The notes under the pieces are model-generated. The model made no database searches. It was given only the letters and a program-made list of their open reading frames with translations, and was not told where the DNA came from. Of a stretch of 64,000 bases of DNA, positions 14,676 through 42,607 are shown piece by piece. The stretch's first letter is position 1, and each line of letters begins with the position of its first letter. This DNA comes from Patescibacteria group bacterium (GTDB lineage: Bacteria; Patescibacteriota; Minisyncoccia; Phycocordibacterales; Phycocordibacteraceae), in contig JAUPKX010000007.1 of NCBI GenBank assembly GCA_030837225.1, positions 65,182-129,181 of the forward strand. Reading direction: 5' to 3'. A program made the position numbers and the translations under genes.

Positions 14676-15084
14676 CGTCGGCAACTGGCTTTACAGCGAG
14701 ACTGTGCGCGACCATTTCTTCGCGCCCAGAAATCTTTTGCTTGATGAAGCAACATATGAAGCCGATGGGATAGGAATTGTCGGAAGCCCCGCCTGTGGTG
14801 ACATGATGGCAGTTTGGATAAGGGTGGATCCAAAGGCAGAGCGTATAACCGAGTGCAAGTGGCGGACATTTGGTTGCGCCTCCGCTATCGCCTCAACTTC
14901 GATGATGTCAGTTATGGTGACCGAGGAAGGTGGCATGCTGCTTACCCGAGCAAAAAAACTTACTCCTGAAGCAATTATTGAACGCCTGGATGGGCTTCCA
15001 GACAGGAAATACCACTGTTCTGTGTTAGGACACCTCGCCATTCGTGAAGCAATCAAAGACTATGAACAAAATCATGGAGGATAA
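14650..15084 (+). CDS. Fe-S cluster scaffold protein, IscU/NifU N-terminal domain
   Basis: Three conserved Cys (GSPACGD, FGCASAI, YHCSVL). Confidence 0.85.
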   Translation: MHMKNNPGDVGNWLYSETVRDHFFAPRNLLLDEATYEADGIGIVGSPACGDMMAVWIRVDPKAERITECKWRTFGCASAIASTSMMSVMVTEEGGMLLTRAKKLTPEAIIERLDGLPDRKYHCSVLGHLAIREAIKDYEQNHGG

Positions 15085-15766
15085 GCTTGTATACGTAGTC
15101 ACAGAGAACAAGCGGGAGAATCACGATACGGTGACGCTTTTGCTTTCGTGCGAAAAAGGGTCTGTTCCGCCATTCGTTCCAGGTCAATTCATTAGCATCT
15201 ATTTCCCCGAGCTCAACACGCCCGAGGGTAAGTCGTACAGCATTTCGGGTCCTCCGGGCAAGGAAACAATGGAAATAACAATCAAGGGAATCGGCGAATT
15301 CTCTAACCGCCTTTGTGCCATGAAGCGAGGCGACAGAATTATCGGATCTTCCCCGTATGGTTTCTTTTATAGCGAACAGGATGATACTGGCTTGGTCATG
15401 ATTGCAGGCGGTATTGGCATAACACCGTTCCGCGGCATGATAGCTCATACTCTGGAACACGAGCCTGGACGAAGCATCAGCCTATTCCATAGCGCTAGAA
15501 CGGCTGCTGATCTGATTTTTGATAAAGAGCTAGCGAATGTATCTGGATTAGCAACGCATTATTTCGTTACAAGGGACACTGTTTCTTCCCCTCTTATTAC
15601 TCCAAGAAGAATGAAGCCTGAAGATATTGTTCGGAATTGCAGGCCTGAGCTCGCCGAATTTTTTATCTGCGGATCCATACCTTTCGTACGAGATCTATGG
15701 CATGGCCTCAAGAGCCACGGTATTGCCGAAGATAGAATTTACACTGAGGCTTTCTTTTCACACTAA
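15044..15766 (+). CDS. FAD/NAD(P)-binding oxidoreductase (ferredoxin-NADP reductase / PyrK-like electron-transfer flavoprotein)
   Basis: FAD-binding R-x-Y-S motif region (GKSYSISG), NAD-binding GGIGITP glycine-rich loop. Confidence 0.7.
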   Translation: MKQSKTMNKIMEDKLVYVVTENKRENHDTVTLLLSCEKGSVPPFVPGQFISIYFPELNTPEGKSYSISGPPGKETMEITIKGIGEFSNRLCAMKRGDRIIGSSPYGFFYSEQDDTGLVMIAGGIGITPFRGMIAHTLEHEPGRSISLFHSARTAADLIFDKELANVSGLATHYFVTRDTVSSPLITPRRMKPEDIVRNCRPELAEFFICGSIPFVRDLWHGLKSHGIAEDRIYTEAFFSH

Positions 15767-15847
15767 TGTCTTCTAGATTGCATCAATAGAACACTGTCGA
15801 TCGTGGATGCGCTTCGCTCTTATCTGCAGGCAAACCGTGTAATCGTG

Positions 15848-16167
15848 TTGCGGGGGCCGGAATCGAACCGGCGTCTGGAGGTTCTTTTACACCTACTGTT
15901 TCCAGAAGGAATGGACTATACCATGATCCTGAACCAGGATCCTCCCATTATAGTCTCTGAACCTTTCCCGGAAAATTCCGAGACTTGGCTGCTGATTGCC
16001 GAATCTTCTTGTTTTTCAAGCATTCACGCTCATCCTTTCGGATCACGTTGTAGCACAAGAAGCTCTAACGGTATTCCAGCAATTTAGAGAGTTTTTCCAC
16101 TACCCGTTACCGGATAGGGTCACGTTGTTCACATGAGCCTCCCGAGGTACCTCTCCTCTACCCCGCT
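15848..16167 (-). tRNA. tRNA(CAT), likely initiator-type Met, interrupted by a group I intron (exons 16133..16167 and 15848..15883)
   Basis: Joined exons give AGCGGGGTAGAGGAGAGGTACCTCGGGAGGCTCAT|AACCTCCAGACGCCGGTTCGATTCCGGCCCCCGCAA. This folds as a canonical cloverleaf: 7-bp acceptor with unpaired A1/A72, U8, D-stem GAGG/CCTC with A11:U24, anticodon stem GGAGG/CCTCC, loop CTCATAA, T-arm GCCGG-TTCGATT-CCGGC. No CCA is encoded. Confidence 0.75.
15884..16132 (-). mobile_element. 249-nt ORF-less group I self-splicing intron in the tRNA(CAT) anticodon loop, between the anticodon and position 37
   Basis: Contains the conserved group I core elements R (GTTCAGAGACTATAA) and S (ATGGTATAGTCC), giving P7 GACTA/TAGTC. 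U at the 5' splice site, terminal G at the 3' splice site, and a candidate P1 guide (GTGACCC) pairing with the exon GGCTCAT. Confidence 0.7.
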
Positions 16168-16295
16168 ATATACTGCTTCATTGAAGAAGCTCAAAAAAGC
16201 ATACCACTTTACTAAAAAGAGTACAATTCTGAGTAGATATAAGGTTATTGCATGGGGTTCATAAACCTCGAATTTTATGATGCTATTCTTGATAT

Positions 16296-16664
16296 ATGCC
16301 TCACAAGGACCCCGAGCGCGCAAAGGAGTATCACGCGAAGTATATGAAAGAAGTGTGGTATCCGAAAAACAAGGAGAAGCACCTTGCTTACGTGCGTCGT
16401 AACAAGCAGCGAGTTACAGCATTCATCGCAGCGTACAAAAAAGATCGCTCATGCACAGACTGTGGGTTCTCGGGGAAGGAATTCCCTTTTGTACTTGATT
16501 TTGACCACCTCGATGGAGGTCTCTCGAAGAAATTTACAATCGGCAGCTGGTCACACTCAGTACTCAGCATTGAAGCTATTGAAAAAGAAATTGAGAAGTG
16601 CGAACTTGTGTGCGCAAACTGTCACCGCATACGAACCTTCTCTAAGAAGGTTGTGGAGGGCTAA
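16296..16664 (+). CDS. free-standing HNH-family (homing-type) endonuclease
   Basis: C-x2-C ... FDHLDGG ... ELVCANCHRIRT (His-Asn-His beta-beta-alpha-metal motif with zinc-finger cysteines). Lower GC than the flanks. 129 nt from the intron-containing tRNA. Confidence 0.75.
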   Translation: MPHKDPERAKEYHAKYMKEVWYPKNKEKHLAYVRRNKQRVTAFIAAYKKDRSCTDCGFSGKEFPFVLDFDHLDGGLSKKFTIGSWSHSVLSIEAIEKEIEKCELVCANCHRIRTFSKKVVEG

Positions 16665-17254
16665 ATCTCCCCATGCTCACGCATCACCATCTCATACATA
16701 GCTATGGTGCGGTGCGCGAGGTGCTCAGTTAACTCGAACGAGGAACCACTATGGGCAATCTCGTTACGTACCTTATGGGCGTCCCACGCGAACTGGAGCG
16801 TCGTAAACTTCGCAGGATTAACGGCCTTGAGCTTCTCCCCGACACCCTGGCCCGGATACCCAAGCTGAGACAACAGATCATCTAGCATAATATCCGCTTC
16901 GATAATCGCCTGGCGCCAGTCGCTCTCGTGCGGACGTTCAACAAGCTCCCGAACGTGCTCCCATCGAGAATGATCTCGTTCCACCTCCGCATGTGCAGAG
17001 TGTTCGGTGGCGTACTTCGCTGATTCTTCCCGCTTCGTCTGATGTAAACGAATGGTGGAGTTAATAAACACCGCGAGGAGCGCAATCGTTACAACAATTG
17101 AAAGCCCCGTTGCTATGAGCCAGATCTGACTCGCAAGAGCGAGCAGACTGGTCTGTAAGGAGAAGCCTCCCGGATTCGAGACGAGCTCGTAGAGGAGCCT
17201 AAAGAAATACTCGACGTTAAGAAAATGAACGGTAGGTTCCGAAGTTGTTCCCAT
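16661..17254 (-). CDS. membrane-anchored protein with C-terminal HEPN-like R-x4-H motif (DUF4145-like); function unknown
   Basis: Long N-terminal hydrophobic hairpin (LLALASQIWLIATGLSIVVTIALLAVFI) followed by a helical domain containing WDAHKVRNEIAHSG. Stop codons overlap convergently with the HNH gene. Confidence 0.45.
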   Translation of the reverse strand: MGTTSEPTVHFLNVEYFFRLLYELVSNPGGFSLQTSLLALASQIWLIATGLSIVVTIALLAVFINSTIRLHQTKREESAKYATEHSAHAEVERDHSRWEHVRELVERPHESDWRQAIIEADIMLDDLLSQLGYPGQGVGEKLKAVNPAKFTTLQFAWDAHKVRNEIAHSGSSFELTEHLAHRTIAMYEMVMREHGEI

Positions 17255-39163: not shown

Positions 39164-39240
39164 GCACCCTTAGCTCAGTTGGTTAGAGCACGGAGCTTAT
39201 ACCTCCGCGGTCCTTGGTTCGAGTCCAAGAGGGTGCACCA
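39164..39240 (+). tRNA. tRNA-Ile with rare anticodon TAT (UAU; decodes AUA), CCA encoded
   Basis: GCACCCTTAGCTCAGTTGGTTAGAGCACGGAGCTTATACCTCCGCGGTCCTTGGTTCGAGTCCAAGAGGGTGCACCA. Anticodon stem CGGAG/CTCCG, loop CTTATAC. Confidence 0.8.
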
Positions 39241-42154: not shown

Positions 42155-42561
42155 GGGGGTGACCGGCTTTGACGGTCCTGTACTTTGAGAGACGTGCGAC
42201 GCGGTGGAAGGATACTGACCACCTAAAAACGTATTCAATCAAACTTGCCAAGAACACTCTTGCAAGCGTAAAGTCGCCTTACTTCGGTAAGAAGGATTTT
42301 GCGTTCGCTTACGCGTAAAAGCTTCGCGCTTTCGCCTAAGCGACGTTCATACATCTCCGTTTCTTCAGGGAGTTGTATGGGCGGAATCTTCTGAAGAATC
42401 GGTATCGAGAGCCTCCCTGCCTTCGGCCTAAAAGATGGGACTAGGCAGAAGTGTTTTGGCTAACGTTCCTATGCTCCTGCTGAACCCTCAACGTTAGCTA
42501 CGCGTCGTAGACTCGCTCTTAAAGCAGGATTCGGACCGGAGTTCAACTCTCCGCACCTCCA
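42155..42561 (+). ncRNA. ssrA: transfer-messenger RNA (tmRNA, ssrA), about 407 nt, CCA not encoded
   Basis: 5' GGGGGTGACCGGCTTTGACGG resembles the tmRNA 5' consensus (GGGGCUGAUUCUGGAUUCGACGG). 3' T-arm CGGAG-TTCAACT-CTCCG plus acceptor CACCTCC-A. The acceptor includes a G3:U70 wobble pair, the alanine identity element. Lies immediately downstream of smpB. Confidence 0.7.
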
Positions 42562-42562
42562 C

Positions 42563-42607
42563 ATATAGAAACTATAAAACCGCCCTCTGGGCGGTTTTAT
42601 AGTTTCT
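42563..42607. terminator. 20-bp perfect inverted repeat terminator (bidirectional) after ssrA
   Basis: tagaaactataaaaccgccc-tctg-gggcggttttatagtttcta. Confidence 0.6.

Follow-up and report, generated by a model that had tools for sequence, protein, structure and literature searches.

Are the short group I introns that interrupt tRNA genes of Patescibacteria stranded relics, or can a nuclease encoded beside them keep them moving? The question is raised by a locus in a 64,000-nucleotide (nt) stretch of contig JAUPKX010000007.1 (assembly GCA_030837225.1, positions 65,182 to 129,181 of the forward strand; the whole stretch is called the window hereafter), where a gene for a free-standing HNH nuclease adjoins an initiator-like tRNA-Met(CAT) gene split by a group I intron that contains no open reading frame (ORF). 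The host is a member of the Patescibacteria (Paceibacteria), judging from the names of identical and related proteins. An earlier note, made from the letters of this stretch, had likened the arrangement to one known from phage T4, in which a free-standing endonuclease mobilises a neighbouring ORF-less intron. The comparative evidence fits this proposal: the elements are polymorphic among related loci, the nuclease is linked to the intron in 22 of 22 loci, and there are signs of transfer, of decay and of a second nuclease-intron pair. We assign a probability of roughly 0.6 to the reading that the HNH ORF is a free-standing homing endonuclease gene acting together with the ORF-less intron, which lies between tRNA positions 36 and 37 (the 36/37 intron), by collaborative (trans) homing, with the cut probably made at the intron site.

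The association of nuclease and intron was assessed in a sample that was not selected for the HNH gene: 80 metagenome loci were fetched via TM197, the protein encoded by the neighbouring gene, and 57 of them could be scored. The usual state in this sample is GatA-TM197-tRNA-fMet on one strand, with a spacer of 35-180 nt, no HNH gene and no intron. Among the 39 intronless loci, whose spacers measure 35-390 nt, none has a nuclease-like ORF in the spacer, whereas 8 of the 18 intron-bearing loci do, two of these ORFs encoding HNH proteins, five a helix-turn-helix (HTH) protein with a LAGLIDADG fold and one a GIY-YIG protein (Fisher p = 2.6e-5, or 1.2e-4 leaving out the GIY-YIG case). The GIY-YIG protein (about 80 amino acids (aa); PF01541, E = 4e-15; L132:3630-3872) is encoded 13 nt upstream of an intron-bearing tRNA-fMet gene, and homologues lie downstream of the tRNA gene in three further loci (L118:2116-2337, L139:5521-5742 and L161:4747-4971), one of them intronless. 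As a candidate homing nuclease this ORF was set aside as ambiguous, since its homologues also occur downstream of intronless tRNA genes.

Of the 80 loci in the TM197 sample, 6 have the HNH gene itself. Wherever an intact HNH gene with at least 69% identity to that of the window could be evaluated, the 36/37 intron was present as well (22 of 22 loci), and a search of this close clade for alleles with HNH and no intron found none among the 22 carriers. The adjacency of HNH and tRNA genes, which recurs in all 22 of these loci, is not due to chance. All close HNH-bearing loci have introns homologous to that of the window, 243-252 nt long; larger 36/37 introns were seen in L013 (340 nt; L013:1640-2051) and L046 (270 nt; L046:5599-5940). 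On a GatA tree the carriers are scattered among empty loci, and HNH and the 36/37 intron were gained or lost jointly in 10 of 10 evaluable sister contrasts. Nuclease and intron are thus inherited as a unit, as the 22 loci, the ten contrasts and a block of high identity common to both (described below) attest, and the sporadic presence of the HNH gene at one site among close relatives is that of a free-standing homing endonuclease.

Occupied and empty alleles can be aligned directly. L015, which has both HNH and intron, and L109, which has neither, are 97.7% identical in their flanks over 2 kb, and their homology breaks precisely at two points, the 5′ end of the tRNA and the stop codon of TM197; the spacer and HNH ORF of the occupied allele stand in place of the 35-180-nt spacer of empty ones. 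A co-conversion tract was sought in the flank of this pair and was not visible, as the density of mismatches near the junction is not raised. Comparison with intron-minus alleles, a check that the earlier note had suggested, found the exons of intronless and intron-bearing alleles to be identical, and the presumed target, GGGAGGCTCAT|AACCTCC, therefore exists in the empty genomes. In the empty, intronless spacers of L109 (L109:4560-4727), L115, L129, L137, L149 and L150, the first ~18 nt of the tRNA (AGCGGGGTAGAGGAGAG, preceded by TAT) recur once or twice as partial direct copies, 64-135 nt upstream of the real gene; earlier occupancy may have left them as scars of repair, or the promoter region may have been duplicated.

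The nuclease gene has also moved between lineages. In the pair L116 and L139, nucleotide identity is 96.6% for HNH, against 73% for GatA and 68% for TM197, and the proportion of synonymous differences (pS) is 0.09 for HNH versus 0.68 and 0.67 for GatA and TM197, respectively; several other pairs have a pS of 0.31-0.42 for HNH versus 0.53-0.64 for the flanking genes. Although HNH is under purifying selection (proportion of non-synonymous differences, pN, of 0.07-0.19 versus 0.14-0.27 for GatA), such selection cannot depress synonymous divergence so far, and the low pS therefore reflects movement between lineages. In sliding windows, a single block of raised identity spans the intron-bearing tRNA gene, the spacer and the HNH gene, and the HNH stop codon marks its end. 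The horizontal spread relative to flanking genes that characterises homing endonucleases is thus seen in these pairs, though not for the copy in the window.

These data bear on the possibility that HNH is a domesticated host gene, inherited vertically, that serves the cell in connection with tRNA genes, for instance in processing or regulation. A gene of this kind might well change more slowly than GatA, keep a constant place in its gene block and have relatives beside tRNA genes across phyla, all of which are true of HNH. Its absence from 51 of the 57 related loci that were scored, one of which has flanks 97.7% identical, would not be expected, nor would frameshifted copies or, in some pairs, a synonymous divergence far below that of the flanking genes. 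We consider domestication very improbable and strongly disfavoured; a housekeeping interpretation, based on synteny, a conservation greater than that of GatA and saturated synonymous sites, fell once loci had been sampled through TM197.

Decay products provide information about where the break would be made. The HNH gene of L060 has lost its start and carries an internal deletion and a frameshift, and that of L046 has lost its first 29 codons; both loci have kept the intron. In the intron-only alleles L118, L131 and L133, a 36/37 intron 91-95% identical to those of carriers is accompanied by a short, empty-type spacer without a trace of HNH. A break next to the point of HNH insertion should commonly yield products with HNH alone; a break at the intron site should yield intron-only products, and carriers of HNH alone would then cut themselves. 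The presence of intron-only and absence of HNH-only alleles in the close clade favours a break at the intron site, small as the numbers are.

A second nuclease-intron pair occupies the same tRNA gene. Thirteen loci have introns of 203-257 nt at position 33/34 of tRNA-fMet, which have only the catalytic core in common with the 36/37 lineage; of three tested introns of this second lineage, one reached the Rfam threshold. In five of the 13, and in no other scored locus, the spacer contains an ORF of 222-246 aa in opposite orientation to the tRNA gene (Fisher p = 3e-4). Sequence libraries detect only an N-terminal helix-turn-helix in its product, which is an HTH protein with a LAGLIDADG fold, nuclease-like and unrelated to HNH. 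That two unrelated nucleases should each be tied to an intron of their own, at separate positions in one anticodon loop, is hard to account for unless nuclease and intron are functionally linked.

We propose the following course of events for collaborative homing by HNH and the 36/37 intron. When DNA of a carrier meets an empty genome, the nuclease would nick or cut the intronless tRNA-fMet gene at, or close to, the point where the intron inserts, within GGGAGGCTCAT|AACCTCC. Repair of the break from the carrier allele would always copy the intron, which is nearest to the break, and would often co-copy the nuclease gene, about 165 nt from it. The intron would split the recognition sequence and so render carriers immune to their own nuclease, while self-splicing would preserve the function of the tRNA. 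Of this scheme, the target in the DNA, the protection that the intron would give and the copying by repair are inferred; the analysis itself shows that the ORF is homologous to nucleases and has kept its catalytic motif, that near-identical genomes differ in its presence, that it strictly co-occurs with the intron, that it has been transferred horizontally relative to flanking genes and that it leaves decay products. The locus also offers what collaborative homing calls for in the intron, namely an adjacent group I intron that lacks a nuclease ORF and is predicted to self-splice.

The protein has the sequence motifs expected of a nuclease. Its translation contains the motifs C53xxC56, F69-D-H71-L-D-G-G and C106-A-N-C109-H110-R-I-R-T, much as the earlier note had read them, in a layout of a long N-terminal helix, two CxxC pairs and a DH...N...H catalytic motif. 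Thirty-one residues are invariant over 22 HNH homologues, among them C53, C56, D70, H71, C106, N108, C109 and H110. The catalytic His/Asn, the metal-binding His and the two zinc-binding CxxC pairs predicted from these motifs are those of the HNH (beta-beta-alpha-metal) superfamily. The hidden Markov model search that the note had suggested gave a divided result: PHROG profiles of two HNH families matched strongly (phrog_2255, E = 8e-24; phrog_3106, E = 3e-23), while Pfam PF01844 remained below its cut-off (E = 0.069; 13.7 bits against 21.4), and searches of NCBIfam, PADLOC and PDB sequences returned no match. An AlphaFold model (predicted local distance difference test score, pLDDT, 83.5) has a 44-residue N-terminal helix followed by a strand-strand-helix unit; fold searches listed mostly HNH and Endo VII nucleases, none at significance. 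It had also been claimed that the GC content of the gene is lower than that of its flanks. At 47.2% it is indeed below the 52.1% of the window, but the gene on the other side, beyond the tRNA (15044-15766), is lower still at 46.3%, and GC at third codon positions (GC3) of HNH is not low. GC content was accordingly dropped as a discriminator; the argument from it is weak and not diagnostic.

The same residues speak to the idea that HNH cuts no DNA and instead helps its neighbour to fold and splice, in the manner of a maturase. Strict co-occurrence of HNH and intron in the close clade is what such a helper would produce. The idea is nevertheless highly improbable, slightly more so than domestication, given that intron-only alleles persist without HNH, that the catalytic and zinc-binding residues are all invariant, that HNH relatives stand beside intronless tRNA genes, and that related tRNA introns of Patescibacteria self-splice in vitro (PMC13011429).

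Relatives of HNH were collected in a genome scan with one genome per species, which yielded 213 relatives, and 80 of their loci were kept. Nearly all 80 have a tRNA gene within 0-150 nt, and the arrangement changes with divergence. Relatives of at least 69% identity repeat the arrangement seen in the window, pointing away from a tRNA-Met(CAT) gene that has an intron, and throughout the Paceibacteria the place of HNH is constant in the block GatC-GatA-TM197-HNH-tRNA. Those of 47-61% identity lie between an intronless initiator tRNA gene and an elongator tRNA-Met gene. Those of 33-47% identity (L052-L088) come from Acidobacteriota, Gammaproteobacteria, Actinomycetota, Saccharimonadia, Woesebacteria and one archaeon, and end 0-30 nt upstream of a same-strand tRNA gene without an intron; for 31 of 36 the distance is within 100 nt. 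The tRNA partners of these distant relatives include Gln-CTG, Arg-TCG, Glu-CTC, Phe-GAA and Met, the same partner recurring across phyla. Since distant relatives stand beside intronless tRNA genes, the basic, ancestral link of the family is with tRNA genes rather than with introns. The notion from the first genome scan that HNH is tied to the tRNA and not to the intron was true of the distant relatives and false for the clade of the window.

Two side observations come from the same scan. In the mid-clade, tRNA-Asp(GTC) genes with introns of 212-254 nt lie a few hundred bases downstream of HNH (L031:7228-7556, L043:6570-6857 and L050:7204-7491); these are probably the 35/36 introns of Nakagawa et al. 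2026. L053 and L054, 50 kb apart on one Acidobacteriota contig, are two identical HNH-tRNA-Met arrangements with the same neighbours, reflecting a large duplication or an assembly repeat.

A different account of the association arises from these distributions, namely that homing takes place without reference to the intron: the target of HNH would be spacer sequence or the 5′ margin of the tRNA gene, and the intron, ~165 nt away, would hitch-hike by co-conversion. Distant relatives from several phyla lie 0-30 nt upstream of tRNA genes that have no intron, others lie in phage tRNA arrays, and both suggest that the usual niche of the family is the tRNA 5′ flank; the break in homology between occupied and empty alleles falls exactly at the tRNA 5′ end; and in L029 HNH is present without an intron. 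Yet a cut near the HNH insertion point should often leave HNH-only alleles, which number zero among the 22 carriers of the close clade, and the spacers of the intron-only alleles L118, L131 and L133 are cleanly of the empty type. An unrelated nuclease is, moreover, equally exclusive with another intron. We regard hitch-hiking of the intron as the main rival, unlikely at about one chance in four, and prefer a cut at the intron site.

Homologues of HNH also occur in 112 phage records, some of them inside tRNA arrays, where the relatives in phages Phabba and Mx1 end at or overlap a tRNA gene. Together with the top family matches, which are to phage HNH families, these records might point to a remnant of a phage or a defence system, such as a terminase-associated HNH protein or a restriction-type nuclease. 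No phage or defence genes are found nearby, however; the neighbours encode IscS, NifU, GatCAB and a ligase. Terminase or portal neighbours, as for the phage HNH protein of the HK97 gp74 type, are absent from these surroundings, which consist of housekeeping genes. PADLOC gave no match, and no relative on a viral contig exceeds 54% identity. An origin as a remnant is thus disfavoured and barely credible. For the close clade, a phage vector was likewise rejected, viral contigs holding only relatives of at most 54% identity, with 6 of 80 next to a tRNA gene.

Several observations weigh against collaborative homing at the intron site. The intact HNH gene of L029 (61% identity, with the gene order of the window) adjoins an intronless tRNA-fMet gene, as do HNH genes in most mid-clade loci (47-57% identity). 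The anticodon stems of L029 and the mid-clade are CAAGG/CCTTG or similar rather than GGAGG/CCTCC, which could mean that those tRNA genes are resistant or that those enzymes have another target. With distant relatives beside intronless tRNA genes of other kinds, the nuclease in general needs no intron. The window's own HNH copy has a pS of 0.71 to its nearest relative, where GatA has 0.70; synonymous sites are saturated and recent transfer is not indicated. In the close clade, intron distances are correlated with the GatA distances of the hosts (Mantel r 0.51) about as closely as those of control genes are. Much of the history of HNH and intron is therefore vertical or between close relatives. 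Joint loss through recombination with an empty allele would yield part of the same pattern, the GatA tree is a single-protein neighbour-joining tree drawn from metagenome-assembled genomes and metagenome contigs, and both the target site and the DNase activity of HNH are putative.

The features of the locus are collected in Table 1.

Table 1. The intron-split tRNA gene, the HNH gene and adjoining features, in window coordinates.
Feature	Position	Strand	Size and character	Basis
tRNA-Met(CAT), initiator-like, intron-split	15847..16167	-		ARAGORN, introns allowed
tRNA 3′ exon	15847..15883	-	37 nt	ARAGORN, exon comparison
Group I intron between tRNA positions 36 and 37	15884..16132	-	249 nt, ORF-less	Rfam RF00028, ARAGORN
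tRNA 5′ exon	16133..16167	-	35 nt, ends in anticodon CAT	ARAGORN; same as intronless alleles of L092 and L109
Divergent spacer, tRNA 5′ end to HNH ATG	16168..16295	.	128 nt, 31% GC (AT-rich)	Sequence
Free-standing HNH nuclease gene	16296..16664	+	122 aa, ATG start	ORF and translation
TM197, flanking host gene	16661..17254	-	197 aa, without family match	ORF; synteny in 40+ loci

That the tRNA is interrupted by a group I intron without an ORF, and that an HNH-motif gene lies next to it, was borne out. Rfam RF00028 matches 15892-16123 (-) with 68.7 bits, above its gathering score of 50; a U closes the 5′ exon and a G closes the intron, which at its length is too short for a nuclease gene to fit inside. 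The tRNA is read as an initiator because it has a mismatched 1:72 pair and an A11:U24 pair, and because a separate tRNA-Met gene (75 nt) is present at 1086-1160. HNH and the tRNA gene diverge from a spacer that presumably harbours the promoters of both, although a search of its 128 nt for the sigma-70 consensus gave no match. The HNH ORF is intergenic, bounded by the TM197 stop and the tRNA 5′ end, and lies outside any intron or intein; its stop codon shares 4 nt with the stop of the convergent TM197 gene, a member of the conserved GatC-GatA-TM197-tRNA block at which the variable segment ends. Elsewhere in the window, a tRNA-Ile gene at 39164-39240 has the anticodon TAT, unusual for bacteria, and the tmRNA gene at 42155-42564 has long insertions relative to the Rfam model.

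What would follow for tRNA introns at large is more tentative. It is possible, if somewhat doubtful as a whole, that ORF-less tRNA introns of Patescibacteria are kept mobile by free-standing nucleases acting in trans and are not stranded relics; that two partnerships, HNH with the 36/37 intron and the HTH protein of LAGLIDADG fold with the 33/34 intron, compete for the anticodon loop of the initiator tRNA; that the HNH clade is a lineage of homing endonucleases that have specialised on tRNA genes and occur beside them in several bacterial phyla and an archaeon as well as in phage tRNA arrays; and that such loci are natural intermediates in the proposed origin of mobile introns. Two phage cases had led to the proposal that collaborative homing first united nuclease genes with self-splicing introns, and the same arrangement in bacterial chromosomes would, if true, show the process to be general. 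All stages expected of it are represented here, from the empty site through nuclease with intron and decaying nuclease to intron alone, alongside a second, independent pair. It would also revise the recent view that tRNA introns of Patescibacteria hardly move for want of internal nuclease genes, and it offers compact natural nucleases with a defined candidate target, the tRNA-fMet anticodon region.

In a review of bacterial group I introns, collaborative homing was described from two phages only, one case pairing F-CphI with the ORF-less intron in psbA of cyanophage S-PM2, the other pairing mobE with the intron in nrdB of T4 (PMC3984707; PMC2790892). In the literature that we searched, free-standing nucleases next to tRNA introns of bacterial chromosomes are not described, as the earlier note had supposed, and the searches support the view that collaborative homing, if it operates in bacterial chromosomes as proposed here, was known beforehand from those two phages alone. 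As in the phage cases, a free-standing nuclease gene stands beside a gene whose group I intron has no working nuclease of its own, nuclease and intron are co-inherited, and the intron is thought to protect its carrier. Unlike them, the present locus is in a bacterial chromosome, the interrupted gene encodes a tRNA rather than a protein, the evidence is comparative, and two nuclease-intron pairs meet at the same tRNA; F-CphI, being Endo VII-like, belongs to another family. The locus resembles I-SspI in that a group I intron accompanied by a nuclease has the tRNA-fMet anticodon loop as its homing site, here a proposed one, but I-SspI is a PD-(D/E)XK enzyme encoded within a 33/34 intron, whereas here an HNH enzyme is encoded outside a 36/37 intron. 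A survey of Patescibacteria tRNA introns published in 2026 (Nakagawa et al.) dealt with short tRNA introns of this ORF-less kind in the same phylum; it stressed 35/36 introns of tRNA-Asn and tRNA-Asp, sought nuclease genes only inside introns of >500 bp, so that adjacent free-standing nucleases were outside its scope, and judged transfer to be limited (PMC13011429). The presence of relatives of this HNH protein in phage tRNA arrays recalls the homing endonucleases of phage tRNA clusters, T4 SegB and the HNH enzymes of large actinophages, although SegB is a GIY-YIG enzyme and those cases involve no intron. Enzymes of the SegB type target the tRNA gene region.
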